Assembly: GCF_026571515.1 (NCBI RefSeq)
Contig: NW_026863809.1
Span: 1 to 64,000, forward strand
Direction of reading: 5' to 3'
DNA length: 64,000 nucleotides
Source: Ruditapes philippinarum
Lineage: Eukaryota
In this document: positions 32,601 through 64,000 of the stretch, in pieces
Layout of the letters: every line of letters begins with the position of its first letter
Numbering within the stretch: the first letter of the stretch is position 1
Position numbers and translations under genes: made by a program
Notes under the pieces: generated by a model
What the model saw: only the letters and a program-made list of their open reading frames with translations
Told to the model about the DNA's origin: nothing
Database searches by the model: none

Positions 32601-32944
32601 TGAAAATCTAAACTATTTTTTTTAATTATACAAATCTATATAAAAATATAAATCAAACTCATTAAATTTGGTTTTACATTACTTTTTTGAACAATTTTGA
32701 ATTTTAGGACATTTAAAAACGACCATACATGAATCCATCAAAAAGTTATTTGATAAAAAATGCCAGGACATACTGTATTAAATTCTATATGAAATCAATT
32801 TTGAAACATAATCTTACCTAATGTACTTTAATTTTGGCGGTTCAACTTCATCAATTTTATCCTCATGTTTGTCTTCTTTTGTTTATCCTTTTTATGACTT
32901 CCTTTTCTACGAAAAGAAAATCGGTTCACAGAAATCTTATCCAT
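26420..32944 (-). CDS. NAXE: NAD(P)HX epimerase (YjeF_N / APOA1BP) paralogue A, 6 coding exons; 1-nt frameshift in exon 1 as assembled (286 aa if repaired)
   Basis: Exons 32818-32944, 29399-29507, 28731-28841, 27913-28090, 27424-27507, 26420-26670, all GT-AG with compatible phases from exon 2 on. Translation has [47 protein letters not shown] and HYLGGR, the NAXE family motifs. Confidence 0.9.
27424..27507 (-). CDS. NAXE: NAXE-A exon 5
   Basis: cag|GC...TCG G|gtatgt, 84 nt, (G)[27 protein letters not shown]. Confidence 0.93.
27913..28090 (-). CDS. NAXE: NAXE-A exon 4
   Basis: cag|GGA...GAT G|gtaatt, 178 nt, [17 protein letters not shown]...[11 protein letters not shown]. Confidence 0.92.
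28525..28585 (+). mobile_element. Helentron/HINE-like terminal fragment in NAXE-A intron 3
   Basis: GACGACGGAC microsatellite remnant, then hairpin AGCTCATCCTGAGC-TA-GCTCAGGTGAGCT and an A tract. Confidence 0.6.
28731..28841 (-). CDS. NAXE: NAXE-A exon 3
   Basis: aag|TGT...TTT|gtatgt, 111 nt, [37 protein letters not shown]. Confidence 0.93.
29399..29507 (-). CDS. NAXE: NAXE-A exon 2
   Basis: cag|T...AAT|gtgag, 109 nt, (S)[36 protein letters not shown]. Confidence 0.93.
32818..32944 (-). CDS. NAXE: NAXE-A coding exon 1 (127 nt, frameshifted)
   Basis: ATG at 32944 reads [21 protein letters not shown]; ends AG|gtaag. One nt shorter than the 128-nt paralogous exon, giving TAA at 32830-32828. 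Confidence 0.75.
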
Positions 32945-34842: not shown

Positions 34843-34998
34843 NNNNNNNNNNNNNNNNNNNNNNNNNNNNNNNNNNNNNNNNNNNNNNNNNNNNNNNNNN
34901 NNNNNNNNNNNNNNNNNNNNNNNNNNNNNNNNNNNNNNNNNNNNNNNNNNNNNNNNNNNNNNNNNNNNNNNNNNNNNNNNNNNNNNNNNNNNNNNNNN
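34843..34998. other. Assembly gap
   Basis: Run of 156 N. Confidence 0.99.
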
Positions 34999-41398: not shown

Positions 41399-44300
41399 TG
41401 TTCAACGTCCTTGTCTAAAGACTGACTATAAAGGCCGTTAAAATTGCGATTGATTCTATACACCCTTATTTTAAGCGTAATGTAAGAAGTAGATGGATAT
41501 AACAAGCAAATTAGACATTTATTGATAAAAAATGAACAAACTTACAGTATTTATAAAAGTAAAAATAAATACATTTAGTTAGGCGAAAAATAATATGCAT
41601 GCACATTTTTATTTCTAAATATCCGAATTTGGATTATCCGAAACGTGCCCCATTTATCTTTTATATTAGTTTTGTGACACAATAGTCTAATTTTAACTAA
41701 ACTATAATTTTGTTAACAATATATAAGAAATATATTGCTATCTTTATGAGTTTAATTCAGTCAAACACACAAATTTATTAGTCTTGTATGAAAATTGTCG
41801 TCAAATTTGTGATTTAATTGAATTAAGCAGGTGCTTTAATTATGACGTCATTATGTCGTCATAGTAACCAGAAATGCCTAATAAATGTCTATTTTGAAAA
41901 TGTAACACATTGTACTATACACCTTTAGGTTTTTATCAATATCTAAGATGGGGCCATTTTTGGTGCTTAGTGAACCTTGCTCTTTGGAGAAAATGTTTTA
42001 TATCACATTGAAAATACCAAAGTTAATAAAAAAACTTCTTCCGATTGGTGCCGGATATTTGAAATGTCGCTAACAAAGATAACCATATCTTGGTCTATGC
42101 ACTCAATATAACCTTGGCCTTTGACCTAATAACCTCAGTTATAAAAGTGTTCTTGCTGGTCTTATAAAATGTATTTTATGACCTAGTATTTAAAATTGAC
42201 GTTAACCGATTATCTTTCACAAACCTCGGCCAATTCCTGCACATGTAATTGAGCATCATTTAAAATAATAACCATTTGAAAATCAACTACCATTTTTTGT
42301 GTCGTCTACCCCGTCACAAAATAAGTTTTAAAATGCTTAAACACAAATATATGAATTATATCACCATGTATGTAATTGGACGAAATTGCGACGTACTATT
42401 TTATTTCTTAAACCTTATACTTAATCAGCTATTTGTTTTGTATGACCTAAAGAAAAAACAATCTGGAAACGAAGTGATCCCTCGGAAGCATTAATCACAA
42501 CAAAATTTCATGAAAACTGCAGACTCAAGAAGTCAACGCTTAGCAAACTTTTTAACCGATTGCATTTTCTGTATTTATATATTACCATATCCCGTGTTAT
42601 GAACTTTGGTGTTTTGATCTTTATGATATCATCGGAATTTAGCATTGTAATTGAATGGCTTCCCTGTCCCTACAATACAAGAAATGAATACTTTAAAAGC
42701 AATTCGAGTCTATAGCATTTGCATTTGTTCGTTTTACACGAACTGGAATGTTTGCATATTTCAAAAATTGATGAAAAGTTACAAGTCTTGCACGGAGAGA
42801 AACGTACTTATCATAGGTCAGACGGTTCTGAACATGCTCAGTATGAAACTTGACCATAATGAATTGAAGTGCCAAAACAATAATAATTGAATTTCTTATT
42901 TGATTTAACTCTAAACAAAATTGATTGGTTCATTAACATCTTGTCCTGCTAAAGATTGAACACGAGATATTTCAATTGAAAAACAATATACACATATTGT
43001 GGAACGGCATAAAGAAACTGATAGGTAATCTACATTATATTTCAAAACACAATAAAAGAAAGTTCAGTTGATACTCACAGCATTACATATATTTTAAGAG
43101 CATAATCCCTTACAAAATTCATTTAACTTTTCCTGATGCAACATAGTTTTTTTTTTTTGGAAATTCGATCAAACAAAATAATACTTAACTCATCGCATGC
43201 TAATATCCATTAATTTTAATGTGACATCACATGCAATGCACTATCCCTTAGGACTTCTTTCAGCAATTAAATTCATTATATATTAATGGACCTACCACTT
43301 TTAATGTAGCAAGAAATAATTATAAAATGTGTATCTTTTAGTTTTTGCTTTCATTTTTATAGCATATTTAGACAATGAATGTGTAATGCATCAATACATT
43401 ATATCCATCTGGGAATTTATGTGGTTCAGATATTGCGACTTGTGCACAAAAGGTTTCAGTAATAACAATAAAGGTATGTCATCTTCCAAATTAACGTGTA
43501 CAACCTTTCGATGTGCGGTTACTGTAGTATTTTGAACGTGAATCAAAATGTTTTCAAATGTGAAATATAGTTTATAGGTTGGCATTATTGTACTTGTGGA
43601 TTAATTCTGATAGTTGATACATTTCGACACATATGTTTCTGATTATCATTCTCATAACTAATTGCTTACCCTAAGCACTTTAATGTAAACATGATATTAA
43701 CGGTGTTCATTTTCTTAAGGAATGAAATGCTTTTTGAACAGATGGGAATTGTGTAAACTGATTAATGTTAATGACCATGTTAATTTGAATAATACTTCCT
43801 TTTAAGTTACTCAATGAAGCATGTGCATTGTGAAATTAAAGATGTGAACATTAATCAGTGTTCTAAATTACTAACTTGTCTTATCTAGATATTTTCACCA
43901 AGAGTTACATACAAATATGTGTTTCATAGATAGGAAATAGGAATAAAAAATTGAATATGTTGCTTCATAAGTTTAGACCAACTGAAAACAATATACTATC
44001 TATGACATTCAAATAAGTAACTATATCATGGGAAATGCAAAAAAAACCCAAATCTTTGGAGAAATAAAATTAGGCAAAAAATATACGATTGATCTGTTAT
44101 TATTGTCTGATCATAATGATTTTATGTGTTCTGTATTCCAATATAAGGAACAATTTTATTTTATCAATACGAAAGAATTGTACGTTTCTAACAAGAAAGG
44201 ATTCAGTCATTAAAAACAAGTACATATTTTACTGTATTGAGCTACACGAATGAGAATGGTATAAGGAATGACAAAATTATATTGAATATCGCACACATAT

Positions 44301-46922
44301 TTGTCACATCATGTTGATACCAAACTCTCATTTCCTACACCTATCAGTGATACCAATTATATTATTACCTATTACAATACGACAAAACATATTAATTTCT
44401 ATATAATAATAATATGGTTAACGAGGTTGGATGCTCCTAGATAATACGATGATATCATTTAAGGATTTTGCTCTTTCTTGGACATAGCAATTAAGCATTC
44501 AATTTTCAATTTCGATCGGATAAAATACTACTTAATTAAGTTCAATTTGTCATCATTTGTCATGCTTTTGCCGATAAATCTATTTAATTAACCAAATGTA
44601 ATGTTTCCTCCCAAAGGAAGTTTCCAAAGAATTGATTGCATAATAGTTTTTATTACATAAATTGAAAGTTTGCTTTTAATGAGAATCCAAAAATCACTAT
44701 TTATATGGTGAAATGAATAATTTATATAATTATATTGTGTATTTTACCTGTGAAGAAAACGGTAGCCATTACATCAAAGATAATGGTTTTACGAAATATT
44801 AAGATGTTTTCTGTATCATTTTTGTTTGCGTTATATACTCAACTCATAGAATTAAAAGTGTTTAAGATATTTATATTTTAGGCATTATAAAATAAAGGCA
44901 GACATTATATGGCAAGAAGTAAACAAATATATTTATTAAAAGGTGAAAAAGGTACAGGTACTCTCAATTGAGTGTCCAAGATAATTTTGAAAAAGAAAAC
45001 ACATCCGAGCCGCATCATACTGACACTGGATGTAACCGCCTAAGGCAATTTAATTCTTTTCATTTTAATGCTATGCGAAATAAAACGCGTTTTAGTATTC
45101 TTAAGTCGTTAAGCCGAGCCCTCCACCTCCTGCATATGAGAATTAACTTGTCAATATAGACTAAATATAGTGACTTGTTTGCACACGACATGATAAGGCT
45201 TGACAAAAACACAATTACTAATCAATTAAATTTTGACACAATATAAATAGCTTATGTTATTTTGATGGTTTTGATGGCACACGCATTCTTTTACTTGGAG
45301 AACATACGCCGCTTTTCATAGAATGAAACACATCTGCGGTTGTTTCTAAATTCAAAATTTCACCATTACCATGACTAAATGTTGAATTCTGCTTAAGCCG
45401 GTGCTAGGGGGCGTTGACGGTAATTTGCACTTTCCATTACCGTCCATGAACAGGCTCAATCAAACCGAGCCTGAAAACATTTTCAATTTTGTCTTGTTGT
45501 GCTTTCTTTAGGTATTCTTTATTTCTCTCTATTTTGTTTCATTTGAGTTAGCATTTTGCACTTAATTAAACCATTGCCCAAAACGGAAGCATCATCTTCC
45601 CATGATCTTACTACTAGTAGACATATGAACAACGCAGTTAATGTTTAGGTTATAACTCGTGACATTTTACAATTGGCTTAATATCAAAAACAGATAAAAT
45701 ACATTTTCTCAGTATTAATGAACACATGAAAATATTTGTAACTGGAAGGGAAACTATTTGTATGGAATATACTAGTATTTCACTTGAAAAATAAAACCAT
45801 GACAACCATGCTTAATGTTTTCGAGAATGCTTCCGAGGGATCACGTTTTTCAAGATGTTGGTAAAGAATGCCTCAACAAATATAAGTCAGGATAAAAGTT
45901 CTGCTGTTTCCAAACAGTTTACCTCTGTTATCAGTGTGGAATTTTTTATATAAATATGTGTCATACTTTTTTCAGACGGTACCGAAATTATCCCCAATAT
46001 TTCTGAAACATCTATATATCAATTTGTGTTAGAGCTTTCTCTGAAATTTCATATTATTCAGCTTGTTATGGTGTCATTGCCTACGAAGTGTATAATTTTC
46101 TTTATGATCGAGTACAGCTGTCTAACAACAGGACACTGAAATTGATGTATATTGCTTCTCGAAAAATACGCTTAAATCGAGTTGGTATGATTCACATTTT
46201 CCGTAGAATTCATATAATATATAAAAAGTTAAATATAAAGAAAACAAAACAAACTAGTGAATATATTCAGAAAGACTTGTATTAATAAAAAATATTTTAT
46301 GCAGACAACTGAAACAGGTACATGTAAGCTTCTATACTGGTACTAGTATATTATTTTCAGAGATGAGAGGAGAAACAAAGATGCATCGTCATGGCCATAC
46401 AGACCTTTAATATTTAATACATGTAAATAAACGAAACATCGTTAAAGCTTGTTAAAACGATGTATTTCATAAATATATAAAGTTTAGTTAGATAATAGCA
46501 TAACATATCTTTATCCGTTAATATAGAGCAAAAAGAAACGAAATTGTAAAGTATATGTTAAATATTTCAACAGGTCATATGTCTTTTATCAGATTTCCAT
46601 ATTGTGTCGTTTAAGACCATACTAACCTGCTATTATGATTCTTATATGAATGATTCTAAAACGGTTTATCATAAAATAACATACTTAATAATGTTTAATA
46701 TATGTACCACATTAAAAGAGTCCTATCAAATCGTTTAAATGTTGTGAATATATTGTGTGAAACCAGTGTGGGGTTCATTTTTGAATTAATAATTACAAGA
46801 GAATACATGAAAACCAATTTAAGAGTTTGATGGCACTGTCAGAAATAAATAGCAATATCAAAAAATATTTAAAAAAAACATATTAAAATATTAAATGTAA
46901 AGTCTGTATCTAAAACCATTTC

Positions 46923-47179
46923 CTAATTATCACTTCTGTTATCACTATTCTCTTGGTTCTCAGTTTCCTCATTATCCACTTTAAGTTCAATAATATAATC
47001 TGTACGCGGGTACACCGGTAAATTTAACTCATATTTTTCTTCAAGTGTTTTTGGTACAATACGTCCTCCAAGAAAGTGATGTTTGCCTTTGAAAAATTTT
47101 GCACAGTTTTTGGGAGCGATAAGAGAAAAAATCATTTCTGGTTTCAAACCATTTTCATCACCGGACTCTATATCCCATC
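46923..47179 (-). CDS. NAXE: NAXE-B exon 6 (to stop)
   Basis: (G)[42 protein letters not shown]...[16 protein letters not shown]. Confidence 0.93.
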
Positions 47180-50100
47180 CTGAAAAGATGAAATAAATTT
47201 AATAGGATTTAAATGCCACTGATAACATGTTGTGACCTGGTTGCAATATTTCAGCTTCAAATCTTATTATAACTACTGTAACATTAAAGTTTCCTATCAT
47301 TGAAATGTGTGAATAATTAATCATCAAATTGAATCACAGTACAAAACAGGTAAATACTATTATATTTTTGAAATCGAGGCCAAATGTAACTTAGATACGT
47401 AAAATGACTGCAAAAATGACATAAATCCAAAAAATCAAGTAATTGCATAAAAATATAATTAGTTAATATTGTAATGAGAACTAAAATGACAAACTGCATT
47501 TTATTTCATGATTTGAGATAAACACGCTATATCTTTTAATTAAGACTTAAGATTAAGAACAAGGAAGATTCAATTATAATTTTATGAATTTATTATCAAG
47601 CATTTTCTGTGAAGTGTATGAAAGTAAACAAATAATCACATGATCAAGGTAGTATTATAAGTTATTAAGATTGATGCTTGACATACCAGATGGTACATCT
47701 ATACTACAAATTGGTGATTCGACTTTCTTCAAAGTGTCCATCACAGACTCAAAGTCCGTTCGTACAGGACCTGTAGACAAAAAAAAAGCGATTTACTACT
47801 TATCTTCTAAAAGGGCTACAATTTTAGTAAGTCTCTTTTTGAAATACTCTTTTACTTTTAGAAAATAAACCCTTTGCAATAATTTGGAAAAATATGTAAA
47901 ACATTTATATTTGTATATTGGTGGCCAATTATCAGTGCAATAAATTCTATGAAATTGATATTGCGAAATAAATTACAAATAAAAATGTCCACAAACAGGC
48001 CTCATTTTCTCTTCCCATATAGTAAGTAGTACTAATCTATTTGATGTTTGTTTCTTTGGTTATTTGGTTAGAAGTAACACCAACAACGTTACTGCTATCA
48101 TGATAAATGTTATAAAATTTGCGAGACTTTCAGAATAACCTAGCTCCAAATTACCATCAAAATTGAATCCAAATAATGCATCCACGACAAAATTGTACGA
48201 ATCAGTAATCAGGTGTGCTTCTGACGGGAAAAATGATAACAAAGGCATGTCCAAGGCTTCACATTGTTTAAACAGGCTGTTAAATAGAGGCTTGTTCGGT
48301 CTATTTGGATAGAAAATTGTTGGCTTATATCCCTGAAATAAATAACAAAAAATAATAAAACAGGAAGATCTGCATGCGATATAGATATAAGAGTTGTTAC
48401 ATTATACATTGTATGCATGTAATGAATATATTCTAAGTCTTGATTTATATTTTTTCATTTGCAAGTATTTGCATTTTGTCATTAAAAGTGACAATGACAG
48501 TGAATTAAATATAACAAGACAGTATTTTCAGTCATAGATAAAAAAAAAAACCAGTATGTATTATATCAGAATTGAAAGAAAAAATACAAACAATCACATA
48601 CAAACATTTTTAGATGTCTGGCACAAACAAGTCCACAACCGCCATTATTTCCAGGTCCACAACAGACAAGGACAGCATGGCTATCTTTTGTCATCTTTTC
48701 TACTGGAAAACACTTTTAAAAAGGCTATGTGTAATAAAGTAGCAAATAATGTCACGGTAATTGCAGGAAATGATGTTGATGTTTGACTGATTGAAGTTAA
48801 TACAAAATCTGCAATACGTTGTGTAACTAACACTTGTGCAATTATAAAGTTATTTAAGAAATGTTATATAGAATTGGCGATGAATGAGAAGGATTCTTTG
48901 ATCTTTTGATATTTAACGGGATAACGGGATAATGACTGCTGTTCTTACTTATAAACAACATTTGTGAAAGTGTTGATAATCTATTTTTTTAAAATAGCAT
49001 AAACATGAGAAAAATATGCATGTGCTATTTGCAAGTTGACATGAAATATTCATGTATTAGTCACACACATGGGGCAATCGAATAATTGGCGTTTATATTT
49101 ACATAACACGGCAGTTGCCGACTTTGTAGATCAACATTTCCGAAACATACAAATAGTAAAAAAATAATACTGGCTTATTGTAAAAATAGTAAATTCAATC
49201 ATAAGATATACAACAAGAACCGAAAACTACAACTCGAATCTTAAGTATTACTAACTCACTTTTGTTATGGCAACAGCACAACTATATCCCGAAAGCTCCA
49301 TAACTTGATCAACTGTAAATGCATATTCCGTGAATAATTCTTGTTCTATTTCCTGAGCCTCTTTCTGACTGAATTAAAAAAACAACATTAAATAAGACGT
49401 CAAATGTATATATTGTTTTAAAATACACGATGTCAACTTTTTAGAACTGTCTTTTTAATTGATTTAATTTATTCATCTATGATCATAGAAATTAGAAGCA
49501 TAACAAATTGGCATTCACTAATTTAGTCAGCATACGATTCATATGACATTAGTTTGCATGTTTACATTCGGTTTTATTTTTTGACTACCACCGGCAATTG
49601 CAAAAAAAAGATTTGTTAGCCCCTAGCATATCTTTTTTTATTAATTTTTTACCAGGAAGAAATTGCAGTCGTTATGAAAGTGTATAGCTTTTATCTTATT
49701 ACGCTCTTCACGTAAAGTTGATGTCAACATTCGTTTGCGTATACATGTATTTATATTGATGCCTTGAGCAATAAGGAGGACGCTGGGTAGTAAAAGGACA
49801 TTTTAAGAGGATTTGTCTTACGGTTATGATTTTGATGCATCTGCTACAAGAACGAAAGTTGTGTTGATTTAACTGAAATGAAATAATCAAAGCAAATACT
49901 GACACGGCATGTTGATGCTGACAGCTTAAGCACAAATATATTACTTTTTACTATAAAATATTTGCTCAGTACGTATTCTTTAACATCGGCATAAAACAAG
50001 TGCCATGAAGTAAGTAAGTATTTAGTTTTATTTTTTATTGTCATAGAAATATATTTGTTTGTATAAAGACTGACATGCCACCTTACAATGTGAATTCATA

Positions 50101-53100: not shown

Positions 53101-56100
53101 TTTATATCATATTTCAGAGACAATATTCTAATACTAGTAAATAACCAGTATTCTAATTCTGCAAAATTAGTTGTTCAGTAGTGTGTCTCGCATGTTTATG
53201 TGCATGTAACTTAATCAAATGTGTCCAGGTACATATTTCTTTGATTACATTTAACTGCCAAATTATAAAGTTCGTTAAGTAATTAGTATACGCTTTCTTT
53301 GTAGGAAGACGTATATTCTGAATGGTCAGATGACGAGATGTACTTTAATATTAATGTGGCTGTCAATAAAGGTAATTATCTTAAACAATGTTGAAGAAAA
53401 TTTACTTTGTGACTGGAAATGCTGATACAATATTACTGTTATTGTCTATGGAAGGCGAGAGTTTATGCGAGTTGCTGATTAAACTAAGTCATCATCATAA
53501 GTAATAAGCTTACTATAAAAAGACCAAGAAAGTCATGTATACTATATGAAACCTTACCACTGCATATTTACTTATGTGATTATTATTCAGTAAATGCATT
53601 AAATTGAATTAAACACATGTTTTATTCCATATTCTTCATTTCAGACAAAGAAAGTAAAGACGAGCAACATGTACATGAACATGAAAAACATGGTAGTAAA
53701 AAGGAGCAGCAGGTGAATCAATCTGAAAAACAGCCTAGTAACCAGGATCAACATGTGAATGATCAAGAAAACCAGGCTAGTGACGAACGTGTGAATGAAC
53801 ATGAAACATGTGCAAGTAACGTGGAGCAGCACATAAATGAATATTGAAAACAGGCTAATAATGAGGTACAACACATGAATGAAAATGAGATACACGCTAT
53901 TAATATGGAACAACACATAAATGAACATAAAATAAAGGTTAGTTACGAAGTACAACTTGTGGATGCAAATGAAAATCAGACTAGTAACAAGGGAGAATAT
54001 GTAAAAGAACATGAAAATGAAATACAGGATCAAAACGTGAATGACAATGAGATACGTACTAGTAACGATGGTCAACACAGGAACAAACATAAAAAGCAGA
54101 CAAAAAACAAGGGACAACATTTGAATGAACATGAAATACAGGATAGCAGCGGCGGACAAAACGTAAATGAAATCAATGAGAGACGCCCAACATCAAATTG
54201 ATCGGGAGACTAGAGTGAACTTTGTTTATACAAGTTCTTCTGATGACGATATACCACTTTCAAAGTTACTGGAATATAATTTTAAAGGAAAAGAAAGGAA
54301 GTCTGTTTGGCGAAAGTTAATCGATTCAAATACTGAGTATTCTGATGATTGTAATTAGGACATATTATAATTATGATCTACAAAAGAACATATTAAATTC
54401 TACAGATTCAGAGACAGAAGAGCTCCAAAAAATAAAACAAAGAAAAAGGAGACAGAAGAATAGGAAACAATTACTTGTTGCAGAAACAAATCGTGGAAGA
54501 AAAAAAGCATCTACATTTAAATCAAAGTCCAAGAAATTAGTGAACAAACGAAAGAAGGAAAGTCCCCTACAAGATCAATAAAACTTTTAATTTTAAGAAA
54601 GAAGAAAAAAATCAAGAAACTTACAAACACATGATGAATTAAAAAAAGCAGTGAAGCGTAGCAAGACAATTGCATCACTTAAGGCACGGTTAAATCGTCT
54701 GCATGAGGCTAGATTAGACCAACTGTTAGCAGTAAAATTAAGAAAACGAGTTCAAATTCCCGCAGAATGAAACTGTTTCTTTGCAGCTGTTGCTGAGAGT
54801 GTTGACAACAATTTATGTAAGGATGTAGATACATTTCAAAATTCGCTATGTGATCACATTCAACAAAATAAGGACATATACTTACCTTTCTTGACAAGTA
54901 TATCACAAAGCGAGAATCAAAGTGAAGTTTTTGAAAGAGATATAAGCACTATGAGACGCAATGGTCACTAGGATGCAACTCTAGCCGATTGCATCTCTAT
55001 AGCTGTTACTAACTATTTCAATTGTGAAGTGCGGATATATTCAAGCTCGACTTCGACTCCATTTATTAATGTGAAGCCATCAAACTGGGAACAAGATGGA
55101 CATTACAAGCAAATTGAAATAGCGTATAATGCATTCCGGAATAATGAGCATTATGATGCAACCATACCAGTAGTTATACAACCAGATAATACACAAAGAG
55201 TTAATTCAATGGAACATTGTGGGAATGAAAACCATATTCCTGTTACTACACACAAACATGCAGACTATAACAGCTCAAAACAGACGATTGGAACAGTAAC
55301 TTCACAGAAACAGAGAGAAAAATATATTTGATATGTGTTATGCACTTCCAACTTATGAGAGGCAACGTTGTTTTATATGCTTTGTTGTATCGAAAAGCGA
55401 CCCGGTTAGAATCACTAAAAGTAAAAGAAAAGTATCGTTCAAATACAGTTTTTTTCAAAAGAGAAGAAAGCATCCGTGTTTGCCAGAAGTTCTTCCTTAA
55501 AACTCTCGATATTGGTGAGAAGCTGATACGGTACACTCTTAAAAGAAAAACAAATGGTACATTTCAAGGAACAGATTTGAGGGGTATATAGGCACACACC
55601 CAGTACAAAAATCAATGATGCAAGAGTGAAACTCGTGTACGAACATATAAAATGTGTTCCTTAACTATGGAATCTCACTACGCTAAAAAAAGTTCTAAGA
55701 AACAATATGTAGCCCATGATTTGAGCATAAAGCGTAAGTGGCAACTCTACAAGGATTGGTGTAGTTCAAAAGGATATGTCCCGGTAAAAGAATTAAAATA
55801 TAAACAGATATTATGTGAGAATTTCTTTGCATGAATACATTATTCCCGAAGAGTTCCACTCATATATTGCTAGCTTACCAACAAACAAAGCAACAAAGAC
55901 TTCATTTCTGAAAATTCAGAGTATGAAGATGAAGTATATTAGAATTGGTGAACAATTTACAATAACTGCTAACATTGTAACAGACGAATTAAAAAGTATG
56001 TGTTTTATACATGTATAGAAATTTAGGTGAGAAAAATCTCTGATTGATTTTATGTTTAAAAGTTGGGATGTATTAGGATGGCATCTTAAAACAGACAACC

Positions 56101-57564
56101 GTGATTATGTGACGATATGATGGCGGAACTGTAAAAGTTTTATTTTTGTTACCCTTGAAAACTTGTATGGATTTTACGCCTTTATCATTTAATACTTGAA
56201 CACTTTCAAACGGTTATATAATTTTATTCCATTGCTTACAGGACTGTTTATGCCATTTTAATAATTGTGACCAATTATTCTCAATACATATATAAAAAAC
56301 AGTTATATTCAATGTACATTGTATTTCAAAAGGAATAATTGTTTTCAATTTTATTGTAAATGTGCACGATTTCAGATCAAAGTAAGTGGTAAAAGGTCAG
56401 ATATGTCATATGTCACCCTAAGTATGTGTAAGTTTTGTGTATTTGTTAAGAATGAAAGGGTAGTATTTGTCAAATACTACCTTATATGAATGAACAGTTA
56501 TTCTATTAACTTGAACTCCCTTAGCGGCATAAGGTCATATTTGCCATATGCGACCTTTTCATTCTAATATCTCTAGCAAAAAGTAGTAGGAGAAAAAGGG
56601 CGTATGTACAGTATTGATGATATTGATTGATTGATTAGATATTTTGTATGTTTGTATATAAGAATATTAAGATGATATAATAACATCTAACATAAGAATA
56701 ATTGGTTTTCTCTGAATTCAAGTTTTGATTTTTTTAGACAGGTATAAACCTTTAAACTCTGTTCCTGAAAATTATGAAAAATGCACTTACGACCTTTTAC
56801 TTCTTAGGTGACGATATATAATTAATGAAAACTTCCTCCCTAAAAAGGCTGTACTAAAATTATTTTACCTCAAACAAAAGTCAATTTGTTAGTTCTGAAT
56901 GTTTTACAAATAAACACAAGTCAAAAGTTATTAAGCCTTGAATTTGCAATTAAGTTTTACGAATGAGCTAAATTTTTCTTTAGAAAATCATTTGAAATAT
57001 TACTTTAATAATCATACATTGATGGCCTGTATTCATCTTTGTCAATTTATTCAGTCACACTTAACACAATTATTTTAAGGGGAAAATCCAAGACAACATA
57101 ATTTAAAGGCCAATTTTACAAATATTATGCAATAATTCTTAAATCCTTTAAAAAAAAAAACAGAAAATCATTTTTGTCACCAAAACTTATTTCTGATAAA
57201 CCAAACTATCCATGTTTGCAATGATTATGCATTAATTTATCTTTCTGTATATAACACCAAACTCGAATGTTTTGTTTGAAACGAGCATGTTTATATACCT
57301 ACAAACAATTTACATTCATGTTAGAATATCTTGGTGTTGATCATCGGCTTATCTGTTAAAATTTATTTCGATATAACACTGCATGTATATAGTAGATTGA
57401 ATTATATATAAAATTGTTTTTGAAAAATAATCTTACCTTATGTACTTAATTTTTGGTAGTTCAACTTCATCAGTTTTATCCTCATGACTATCTTCTTTAT
57501 CTTTATCCTTCTTATGACTTCCTTTTCTACGAAATGAAAACCGGTTCACGGAAATCCTATCCAT
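46923..57564 (-). CDS. NAXE: NAD(P)HX epimerase-like (YjeF_N) paralogue B, 6 coding exons, 288 aa, GNNGGDG changed to GNNGGCG
   Basis: Exons 57437-57564, 49260-49368, 48602-48712, 48155-48332, 47687-47770, 46923-47179 total 867 nt in one open frame. Internal exon lengths are identical to copy A. Confidence 0.93.
47687..47770 (-). CDS. NAXE: NAXE-B exon 5
   Basis: 84 nt, same peptide as copy A with 9 synonymous differences, cag/gtatgt. Confidence 0.93.
48155..48332 (-). CDS. NAXE: NAXE-B exon 4
   Basis: 178 nt, [17 protein letters not shown]...[11 protein letters not shown], cag/gtaatt. Confidence 0.92.
48602..48712 (-). CDS. NAXE: NAXE-B exon 3
   Basis: 111 nt, [37 protein letters not shown], aag/gtatgt. 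Confidence 0.93.
49260..49368 (-). CDS. NAXE: NAXE-B exon 2
   Basis: 109 nt, (S)[36 protein letters not shown], cag/gtgag. Confidence 0.93.
50875..50900. repeat. (TA)n microsatellite
   Basis: Seen directly. Confidence 0.9.
53030..55930 (+). pseudogene. Disrupted transposase gene: low-complexity repeats, OTU-like domain, Sola1-type transposase segments
   Basis: Apparent exons from ATG 53030 (G|gt), ~53305-53371, and from 53645; many stops and frameshifts; no recognisable DDD core between ...CENF and [14 protein letters not shown]. Confidence 0.7.
53660..54180 (+). repeat. Coding-type degenerate tandem repeat (~42-nt unit, HVNExExQxS)
   Basis: Recurring CA(C/T)(G/A)T(G/A)AATGA and CTAGTAAC words. 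Confidence 0.75.
57437..57564 (-). CDS. NAXE: NAXE-B coding exon 1 (128 nt)
   Basis: [42 protein letters not shown], then AG|gtaag; joins exon 2 as KYISQKEA (NAXE KYLSQxEA-like). Confidence 0.87.
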
Positions 57565-61206: not shown

Positions 61207-64000
61207 GTTTATGATGTCGAAACGTGTTCGTTTTGTCGTTGGTGATATTTTATTAGACAAACAGATGCATTTTTATATTTAAGTTAGTTTTTTGAGACTT
61301 ATACCAACAAAACCCCATTCATTTTACAAACGTTTACATTAGTTTCAAAATTGATGAGATTTCTCGAAAGGTCAATCTTGGAACACTCACACGTATTTTA
61401 TTTGAAACAAACAAAGCCATTTTCGATAAACCGCGTCTATCATTGATAAAAAATATGTTTCAAATAGAAAGAAATATGAATCCCAAAAGAAGGCCCAACA
61501 AACCTATATTTAATCTAATAAATAAGTGTTTGGATTTATATTATTACCGGTGAAAAATGGGTTAAAGGTTCAAATCTATCAAAACTAACAATGTGTATAA
61601 GAAAAAATTATCAACTATATTACAATTTTTAACAGTAACATTCATAATAATAAAAAATAAACGCAATTTGGTTTGAACAATGTATGTTTGTAACACAATC
61701 AGTACGAAAGGACATAGCATGAAGAAGTTTTGATATAAATGGGATCTGAAATCTATTGAGAAAAGAAGTACATCTGTTAAAGATGAAATGCCAGAAATTT
61801 TACTTGAAAAATAACAGAAACATTATGTTGAACGACATAAAGAAAAAAATATTGTAGTAGATTAATGCATGTTGTTTTCTTTTTCAAAATATATTAACAC
61901 AAGAAAAAATATATAACTGATGCTAACAGCTTTATATATTTCAAGAACAATGGTCCGTTACAAAATCCATTTAACTTTTCCCTTTGCAACGATTAAACTT
62001 TTGTTTTGTAATTTCGATCGAGCAAAATAATACTAAACTCATCGCATGCTAACATCAATTAATTTTTCCTTTTTTTTTTTTAATGGTGGGCATTTCTTGC
62101 AAGTTACCCATTTTCCCCCTATTAGGACTTATCTTCAGCAAAATATAGAAATATTAATTTGGATATTCCCTTTTAAAAATGAAACTATAAATTATTAACT
62201 TTGAATCCTTTTTTGTCTCAATCTTTGTAATAAATCATTCTTGCGTATCTCTATTATAACTTCATTACTTTAAACATTCCATTCTACGGAATGTAGCAGT
62301 TGTATTTTAAATAAAGTCAGGTTAAGGAATGATTTTTTTTTGTCAGATAAAGAAGTACATTAAAATTTTGTAAAGCATTATCTCGAAATGTAGTTAAGAT
62401 ATACATGTAGCAACTAGTTCTTAAATGGAAAATAAAAAAAAATCATTGTCCAAATTCAGGTTTACAACCTTTTAACGTACGTTGATTTAGTATTGTGAAA
62501 GTATATCAATATGTTCTCAAAAGTATGAAATACAGCTGATGGGTTGGCATCATCTTATTTTTTTGAATTTGCATTAATTCTGATACTTGTTAACTTTCGA
62601 CTCATATGCTTCTGATAATCTTTTTCTTAATTAATTTCATGTCCCTTGACTAAACTGAAATCTTCCTCTTTTAAATTTTATGGGAAGGGGACAAAATAAT
62701 ATTTTTTTTTTTAAGCGTTGACATTTAAAAACATGCCGCATTGTTAAAATAAAATGTTCAAACAAATTATCCAGATTTCTGAAAATTCTTTGACAACCCA
62801 AATGGAATGTTCTGCTCTGGATAATTTTCCACCCCGGAAAACAATTGTGCCCTTCACAAGAATTTTTGCAAATATATAAATTACTAAAAGGTAACACGTT
62901 TGCTTCATAGGGAAGGCCTATTGATGGTATATTTCGGGGCCAAAACCAATAGATTACACAAGAATAAAAACTATAATTTATTTGTTTACGTCTTTCAATC
63001 CGAATTCTTATTCGTTTCGTTATTTATATAATAAAAAATATCTAGTAAGTCTTTGAATTTAATCGTGTTAACACGAAAAACTAACTTGTTAAGTCAGATT
63101 AGTTTTAACCGAGATAATTTTAATTTGGGGTTTAAATGTTGGCAGAAAAAATTTCCACCATTGGAAAGGGCCCAAAAGGGAAAAAGATCTTTAAAATTTA
63201 AAGTTAATTTTTGGAAAGTTCAAATGAACAACTATACCATAAGAAATACAAAAACAATAAATTTGAAAAAAAGAAAAGAAAAAAAACGACATTCTATCAC
63301 ATAACCAGAAAAAGATTTGGTAAATTACGATTATTTCTCTTATAATATTGAATTTATTTGTTCTGTATTCTGATATGAGTTACTACTATCCTCCTCTACA
63401 TATCCAGCACGGCAAAGAAAATATTGATCATTGACAGTACATATTTTCTGTATTAAGCCTAACGAATAATAGTGTAACGAGCAGTTACAGATAAGGAAAA
63501 GGAAATGATTTGTGTCAAATTGCCTTCAGCAAGACAGATGTGCTATAATCTCCGACTTTAATTGTCAGATATAAATGTGATGAGATTCTAACATATGTCT
63601 TACTTTACATGGTTAATTACATGGAATGACATGTATAATAAATAACACTCACATGTTTGCCACACCCAACTTACCTGTCTTTTACAGATCGTTTTAACTT
63701 TCATCTTTTTTTGTAATAGTCCATGGTGACAGTTTGGAAACAAAACACATTTAAATTCACATCCCAAGTTGCAAAGGTTTTCAACAAACTCTTTCAAATT
63801 GTAAGATGATAGTCTGTTTGGTCTACTAATCAAGGTGATTATGTCTTATAAACTTTGAAAAGGATTTGCTTAAACAGATGAACCAGTGCACATCATGGAT
63901 GCGCTTTTAGACTTGCTACACTATTGGACATGCTACGCTTTTGTTATTGCTGCGCCTATGAAATTGCTGTGCTTCTGAGACTTGTTAAGAAAGAATGGCT

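Follow-up and report, generated by a model that had tools for sequence, protein, structure and literature searches.

Gene B, one of two six-exon NAXE-like genes on the minus strand of the window (the 64,000 nt stretch at the start of contig NW_026863809.1 of Ruditapes philippinarum), is intact, spliced and under purifying selection. It probably encodes a non-epimerase that has come to resemble vertebrate YJEFN3 by convergence, the Cys that replaces the conserved Asp of its NNGGD loop being a by-product of the release of the substrate groove from constraint. The predicted groove is changed at sites that are also altered in other mollusc duplicates and in YJEFN3, and B is therefore likely to have ceased repairing damaged NAD(P)H. 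The initial annotation had proposed a conserved non-epimerase or a redox-sensitive variant; the first of these is in keeping with the comparisons below, while conservation of, or redox selection for, the Cys is not borne out.

Organization of genes B and A

B (57564–46923, minus strand) has an uninterrupted frame of 288 codons, and the 288 aa product is identical to RefSeq XP_060564094.1 (P0001), 'NAD(P)H-hydrate epimerase-like' of R. philippinarum. Every intron in both genes is GT-AG. Exon 1 of B (57437–57564, 128 nt) matches residues 1–42 of P0001 and supplies the ATG and a basic N-terminus with an RFSFRRKGS motif, with no mitochondrial-type presequence; a mitochondrial-type first exon was sought within the window and none was found (best E value 0.2). 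Exon 2 (49260–49368), which is spliced to exon 3 in sequencing run X15, carries D51E, L65V and A69S. Exon 3 (48602–48712, 111 nt, bounded by AG and GT) encodes the beta1-alphaA loop, GPGNNGGCG, in which TGT codon 105 (48635–48637) specifies Cys in place of the conserved Asp. Exon 4 (48155–48332) ends in the beta4-alphaD loop, which reads GFNFDG against the canonical GFSFKG (S173N, K175D). The invariant pocket residue Asp200 and Ser203 are encoded by exon 5 (47687–47770), and exon 6 to the stop (46923–47179) carries T224I and F244I and retains the catalytic Lys227. All of these exons are on the minus strand. In intron 1 of B, a tandem repeat and disrupted open frames that overlap one another (53641–55591) resemble a decayed transposon; three ORFs of this intron gave no matches in a Pfam search, and an Rfam search of the window gave none.

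Exon 1 of A (32818–32944, minus strand) has 127 nt, compared with 128 in B. A frameshift near 32873–32879 leads, in this assembly, to a stop at codon 39; the one-base deletion sits in an A-rich part of the exon and represents a genuine null allele or, alternatively, a slip in the assembly. RefSeq annotates A as a truncated 221 aa product starting at an internal Met (P0122), and an intact A-type protein (P0123) is encoded on another contig. Exons 2–6 of A (29507–29399, 28841–28731, 28090–27913, 27507–27424 and 26670–26420, all minus strand) form an open frame containing GLNFDG and SLIAPK, and exon 3 encodes NNGGDG. The initial annotation had contrasted this loop and its GAT codon with NNGGCG and TGT (48637–48635) in B, and the sequence reads exactly so. 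The codon preceding TGT also differs at its third base, giving three adjacent differences between A and B, which could conceivably have arisen in one multi-base event.

An active subunit with which B might heterodimerize had been suggested, a role for which A fares poorly. A has D51E, A69S, S173N, K175D, T224I and F244I in common with B. Across the 90 canonical rows, sites 51, 69, 224 and 244 have the usual residue in all 90 and site 173 has it in 89, and Asp175 occurs in none, counts that are partly circular because the rows comprise 51 non-mollusc matches and 39 chosen as canonical-looking. With these other pocket changes and its frameshift in the assembly, A does not appear to be a clear active partner for B.

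A 156-base N gap (34843–34998) lies between the two genes, and the A–B spacing thus rests on scaffolding. Two non-coding blocks with 72–74% identity, 42946–43663 upstream of A and 61774–62636 upstream of B, could be a repeat common to both places or a regulatory region that has been duplicated. The 200 bases preceding exon 1 of each gene are conserved too.

Sequence reads, splicing and constraint

Four runs were compared over 46800–49500: the DNA runs X1 (study P1) and X3 (study P3), X15, which was classed as RNA by guess only ('RNA-like'), and X24, a raw RNA run. In both DNA runs, a contig anchored in B's own intron 3 spans 48463–48668 with no other letters, TGT included. Since the two runs come from different studies, TGT is not a miscall, as the initial annotation had argued from the two base differences in the codon. 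That TGT is an assembly error or a private allele, which the fragmented assembly (NAXE-like proteins on 8 contigs) and the N gap between A and B might have favoured, is largely refuted by this linkage to intron 3 and now has a negligible probability.

Contigs of B type in X15, a run taken to be RNA by guess, skip exactly introns 2, 4 and 5, which agrees with transcription of B; one such spliced contig matches B over 354 letters apart from 4 differences. X1 and X3 contain no joints across introns 2, 4 or 5. Among the loose ends of X15, translated by hand, are an exon 1 of B-like sequence connected to exon 2 and fragments resembling P0003, P0004 and P0005, which suggests transcription of several paralogues in a single sample. 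The RNA contigs listed do not include TGT: the B-type exon 2–3 contig ends at 48651, 14 bases before the codon. About 4% of run X24 yielded 32 reads, many of them intronic and none with a spliced joint. Exon depth in the reads is about 10 times intron depth, which agrees with multiple copies but gives no copy number.

Over 227 core codons, A and B differ with dS 0.47, dN 0.051 and dN/dS 0.107. The constraint reported earlier for exon 5 holds, with 9 synonymous and no replacement differences. Polarizing the 24 replacements between A and B assigns the derived state to B in 17 cases and to A in 5, and leaves 2 ambiguous. The resulting dN/dS on the B branch is about 0.15 if dS is split equally between the two genes, a value that is not near 1. 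In the rows listed, the exonic changes in B contigs from other individuals comprise 4 replacements and 2 silent ones. These contigs carry the ancestral Leu220, Ile221 and Cys265 (47132, 47129 and 46996 in the window), and 3 of the 17 replacements derived in B are therefore polymorphic. Cys105 is common to the assembled B and to both DNA runs.

B could instead be a slowly decaying member of a birth-and-death array, its low dN/dS recording past constraint. The frameshift of A in the assembly, the truncation of the related copy P0006, the share of B in the polarized replacements (17 of 22) and the replacement and silent changes among the listed rows from other individuals, three of which restore the ancestral residue, could all be read in this way. 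This is nevertheless improbable. B has kept an intact frame and splice sites at a dS of 0.47 from A, exon 5 has accumulated silent changes only, dN/dS on the B branch is low and spliced transcripts occur. In addition, a comparable oyster duplicate, with Val at site 105, persists in two oyster genera.

Site 105 among homologues

Cys at site 105 was found only in P0001, one of 303 loop-bearing proteins (of 323 proteins); an NNGGC orthologue, for which a search had been proposed, was not found among these 303. In the first, unselected set, 124 non-clam rows have Asp (117), His (4), Val (2) or a gap (1) at this site, and 148 further representatives comprise 121 with Asp, 12 with another residue and 15 without a readable loop. 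Within the clam clade, Asp105 has been replaced three times, by Cys in B, His in P0002 and Thr in P0003. Elsewhere it is replaced by Asn in Mya (P0158), Val in oysters and His in cephalopods, and the named YJEFN3 proteins of panda and frog have Val and Ile, respectively. Forcing nine Asp-less rows into one clade in a 31-row tree cost 198.6 log-likelihood units (AU test, P = 1e-66). A single origin of the loss is rejected, and the site has been released repeatedly.

Three losses within the clam clade, whose length is about 0.76 substitutions per site, are more than the average rate predicts (P = 0.04). They fit what a freed site would be expected to give, and selection for Cys seems needless. 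The contrary proposal is that the Cys itself was selected, in a redox-regulated or covalently catalytic B that perhaps forms a heterodimer with an active subunit. That the codon underwent two replacement steps, that TGT is present in both DNA runs and that Cys109 is one helix turn from Cys105 in the predicted structure are compatible with this. It is very improbable all the same, given the single occurrence of Cys in 303 proteins, His or Thr in the sister copies, a number of losses that fits an unconstrained site, and a putative partner, A, that is not canonical. Experiments or mutagenesis on this Asp were not found in the literature searched, most subscription papers being outside that search.

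The cephalopod NAXE-like proteins (P0061, P0170–P0172, P0056, P0097 and P0121) have His for Asp, a rebuilt second loop and both N-terminal isoforms. The His-bearing protein of Octopus bimaculoides occurs as two isoforms, one of the basic and one of the mitochondrial type. No canonical NAXE with a cephalopod name was present among the 120 matches listed. Taken together, the Octopus isoforms and the composition of these matches suggest that an Asp-less NAXE may be the working one in cephalopods, which may have no canonical epimerase.

Predicted structure and pocket residues

NAXE/AIBP, the canonical relative of B, is NAD(P)H-hydrate epimerase (EC 5.1.99.6), with family models PF03853 and TIGR00197 and mouse structure 2DG2. 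The YjeF_N domain of B is above the family cutoffs (PF03853, 120 bits; TIGR00197, 129 bits against a cutoff of 88.6). The two share a six-exon structure and the same fold (TM 0.99 on the target, 55% identity), the B model (pLDDT 87) superimposing on mouse AIBP with an rmsd of 0.9 Å over 233 columns. In the model, Cys105 is at the start of alphaA and S173N/K175D are in the other loop. B differs from NAXE in having NNGGC for NNGGD, GFNFDG for GFSFKG, SLIAPK for SLTAPK, D51E, A69S and F244I, in its basic N-terminus, which replaces the mitochondrial presequence, and in being multi-copy.

In a study of AIBP, the ADP moiety is assigned to a trench that has the beta1-alphaA and beta4-alphaD loops at its sides, and the invariant Asp D188 caps a pocket (PMC4059234). 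In the alignment, D188 corresponds to Asp200 of B and not to Asp105. In E. coli, according to a second study, the Lys at K192 is needed for epimerase activity and for a proposed second function linked to vitamin B6 (PMC5938422). The equivalent residue in B, Lys227, is retained. So are Asn102, Asp167 and Ser203, which we take to be the K+ ligands (positions from UniProt/HAMAP). For human NAXE, a third paper gives NAD(P)HX regions at 119–123 (printed as '119–223') and 189–195, together with ten patient missense positions (PMC10237136). With an inferred human-to-B numbering offset of 18, the substitutions in B affect both regions but none of the ten missense positions. The first region, NNGGD, reads NNGGC in B, and the second, GFSFKG, reads GFNFDG, where canonical rows have Ser in 89 of 90 and Asp175 in none.

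These residues bear on the main rival to loss of activity, that B is still an epimerase with altered kinetics or an altered preference between NADHX and NADPHX, the Asp being dispensable and K175D retuning phosphate binding. Retention of Lys227, Asp200, Asn102, Asp167 and Ser203, the TIGR00197 score, the unchanged missense positions and the occurrence of the cephalopod His form with a mitochondrial-type N-terminus, with no canonical cephalopod partner among the matches listed, would all suit an active enzyme. We regard this as unlikely, though the least so of the alternatives. Asp is present in 117 of the 124 non-clam rows of the first set, and B departs from canonical NAXE in both segments annotated as binding NAD(P)HX. 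Moreover, YJEFN3 has the same core residues and is reported to be inactive: mouse Yjefn3 had no epimerase activity in vitro, while zebrafish Aibp2 promotes cholesterol efflux and naxe-null fish are viable (PMC12861718). Panda YJEFN3 retains Asn102, Asp167, Asp200, Ser203 and Lys227. Keeping the Lys and the pocket Asp does not therefore demonstrate activity.

Motif-degenerate YjeF_N proteins are already known; what appears to be new is a protein that resembles YJEFN3 without being its orthologue, with a function predicted to be similar. Like B, YJEFN3/AIBP2 is a NAXE duplicate, changed at sites 51, 55, 61, 63, 66, 69, 101, 105, 172, 173 and 224, with the same core kept. The two are not orthologous: B nests with Mercenaria NAXE, whereas YJEFN3 nests with vertebrate NAXE (AU test, P = 1e-66). 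B is also much less diverged and has the conserved basic N-terminus.

Edc3, a multi-domain decapping factor, is a more distant comparison. It shares the YjeF_N fold (3D3J, TM 0.74), but has 15% identity to B, which is a stand-alone domain. The Edc3 YjeF_N domain is described as keeping the invariant pocket Asp and binding NADH in a regulatory role (PMC4059234).

Convergence on conserved sites

Clam copies were compared with seven other duplicate lineages at 67 sites that are at least 98% conserved in the 90 canonical rows. Sixteen sites change in the clam copies and 15 in at least two other lineages, 12 being common to both (P = 1e-7). With the three motif windows that had been used to pick duplicates removed, and conservation defined on the 51 non-mollusc rows alone, 11 sites are common, from 16 and 14 among 61 (P = 3e-6). 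In a comparison with six rows of YJEFN3 type, of which one is named and five were assigned by motif, the clam copies have 16 changed sites in common, from 23 and 23 among 84 (P = 4e-7). Sites are not independent in any of these P values, and the common changed sites may simply be the next most tolerant, since differences in tolerance alone could yield an overlap. Seven of the 10 departures of B fall on sites changed in the YJEFN3-type rows. B itself has diverged at 8 of the 67 conserved sites, well below the number in YJEFN3.

Thirty-seven sites are constant in all of the invertebrate duplicates compared, among them Asn102, Asp167, Gly171, Asp200, Ser203 and Lys227. A strict list of ligand sites gives 9 changes at 12 sites against 36 at 82, which is not significant (P = 0.11); an extended list gives P = 3e-5, but was chosen after the data had been seen.

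Clam NAXE family and the basic N-terminus

RefSeq contains nine derived NAXE-like loci for R. philippinarum (P0001, P0002, P0122, P0123, P0003, P0004/P0125, P0005, P0126 and the truncated, partial P0006), which together with one canonical locus are on 8 contigs. This number rests on RefSeq proteins, and some loci may be haplotigs, so that the extra copies number up to nine. The canonical protein (P0136, XP_060570151.1), encoded elsewhere in the genome than A and B, has a mitochondrial-type start, NNGGD, GFSFKG, SLTAPK and every catalytic motif. The eight derived copies in the tree, from which P0006 was excluded as partial, form one clade adjoining Mercenaria NAXE (support 98/90, and 96/86 in a second tree). 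All eight copies compared residue by residue, A and B included, carry groove changes. Seven of these eight, those with an intact start, have a basic-type N-terminus, and in the full-length derived copies this basic start includes RFSFRRKGS, intact or worn.

In database isoforms of bivalve NAXE, the first exon is of the mitochondrial type or of the basic RFSFRRKGS type; in Mercenaria, the basic start is isoform X1 and the mitochondrial-type start isoform X2, with the same body. The basic N-terminus is old, and canonical NAXE proteins of Mytilus, Pinctada, Haliotis, Lingula, nemerteans, chelicerates and one sea urchin also start with it. A conserved basic N-terminus occurs as an alternative to the presequence on the invertebrate NAXE proteins P0127/P0007, P0009/P0014, P0139/P0013, P0010, P0016, P0032, P0054 and P0065. 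The RFSFRRKGS N-terminus presumably resembles PKA/PKC sites and the MARCKS basic domain. A search with the N-terminus alone returned 9 candidates and added nothing. An alternative or basic first exon of invertebrate NAXE was not found described in the literature searched, which left out most subscription journals.

Independent NAXE duplicates mostly carry the conserved basic N-terminus. Changed motifs occur in 12 of 35 proteins with a basic start against 6 of 84 others, an association that is descriptive only, being inflated by five related clam rows and by the use of one isoform per cluster.

Proposed origin of B and wider relevance

In the sequence of events that we favour, NAXE was duplicated and repair remained covered by the canonical P0136. 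The derived clam copies would then have lost residues of both trench-flanking loops (N101/D105 and F172/S173/K175) and of the first helices, but retained the overall fold along with Asp200 of the pocket, Lys227 and the presumed K+ ligands Asn102, Asp167 and Ser203. Productive binding of NAD(P)HX would have been lost in B, with Cys105 arising as a by-product once the groove was released from constraint. The derived copies would act outside mitochondria, and may have been retained as YjeF_N proteins that bind a small ligand or a partner and do the non-repair job of NAXE, as vertebrate YJEFN3 appears to do.

A broader and distinctly more tentative proposal is that animals have repeatedly split the two jobs of NAXE. 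The basic isoform, present from molluscs to chelicerates and echinoderms, would carry the moonlighting function, and clams, Mya, oysters, snails, cephalopods and horseshoe crabs would independently have made dedicated copies, dropping the ADP trench, keeping the Lys/Asp/K+ pocket and converging on vertebrate YJEFN3. If the jobs have been split, the clam Cys, His, Thr and Asp variants would be a natural mutagenesis series for the second ligand, which could be a B6 vitamer, another small heterocycle or a sterol-transfer partner.

The single codon alone is of modest interest; it is the repeated pattern that makes a second function of NAXE testable. NAXE deficiency is a lethal childhood encephalopathy. 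Candidates for a second function are vitamin B6 homeostasis, which needs the same Lys (PMC5938422), and cholesterol efflux by Aibp2 (PMC12861718). Duplicates in which some residues are lost and others retained could separate positions required only for repair from those required for the other job, and would serve both as ready-made separation-of-function mutants and as proteins for ligand screens. For annotation, many mollusc 'NAD(P)H-hydrate epimerase-like' proteins pass family cutoffs yet may be inactive. Reports of mollusc NAXE duplicates, of convergence at these sites or of a hydrate epimerase in R. philippinarum were not found in the literature searched, again with most subscription journals outside the search, and nothing relevant was found on links to testis or sperm.

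Two further observations concern other lineages. A separate array of NAXE copies is present on a single chromosome of Mya arenaria (P0009, P0158–P0167), one of the copies having NNGGN. Motif-degenerate NAXE-like proteins are also present in Macrostomum (P0184, NNGGF), Diploptera (P0194, DNGAK) and Helobdella (P0200, RNGAE).
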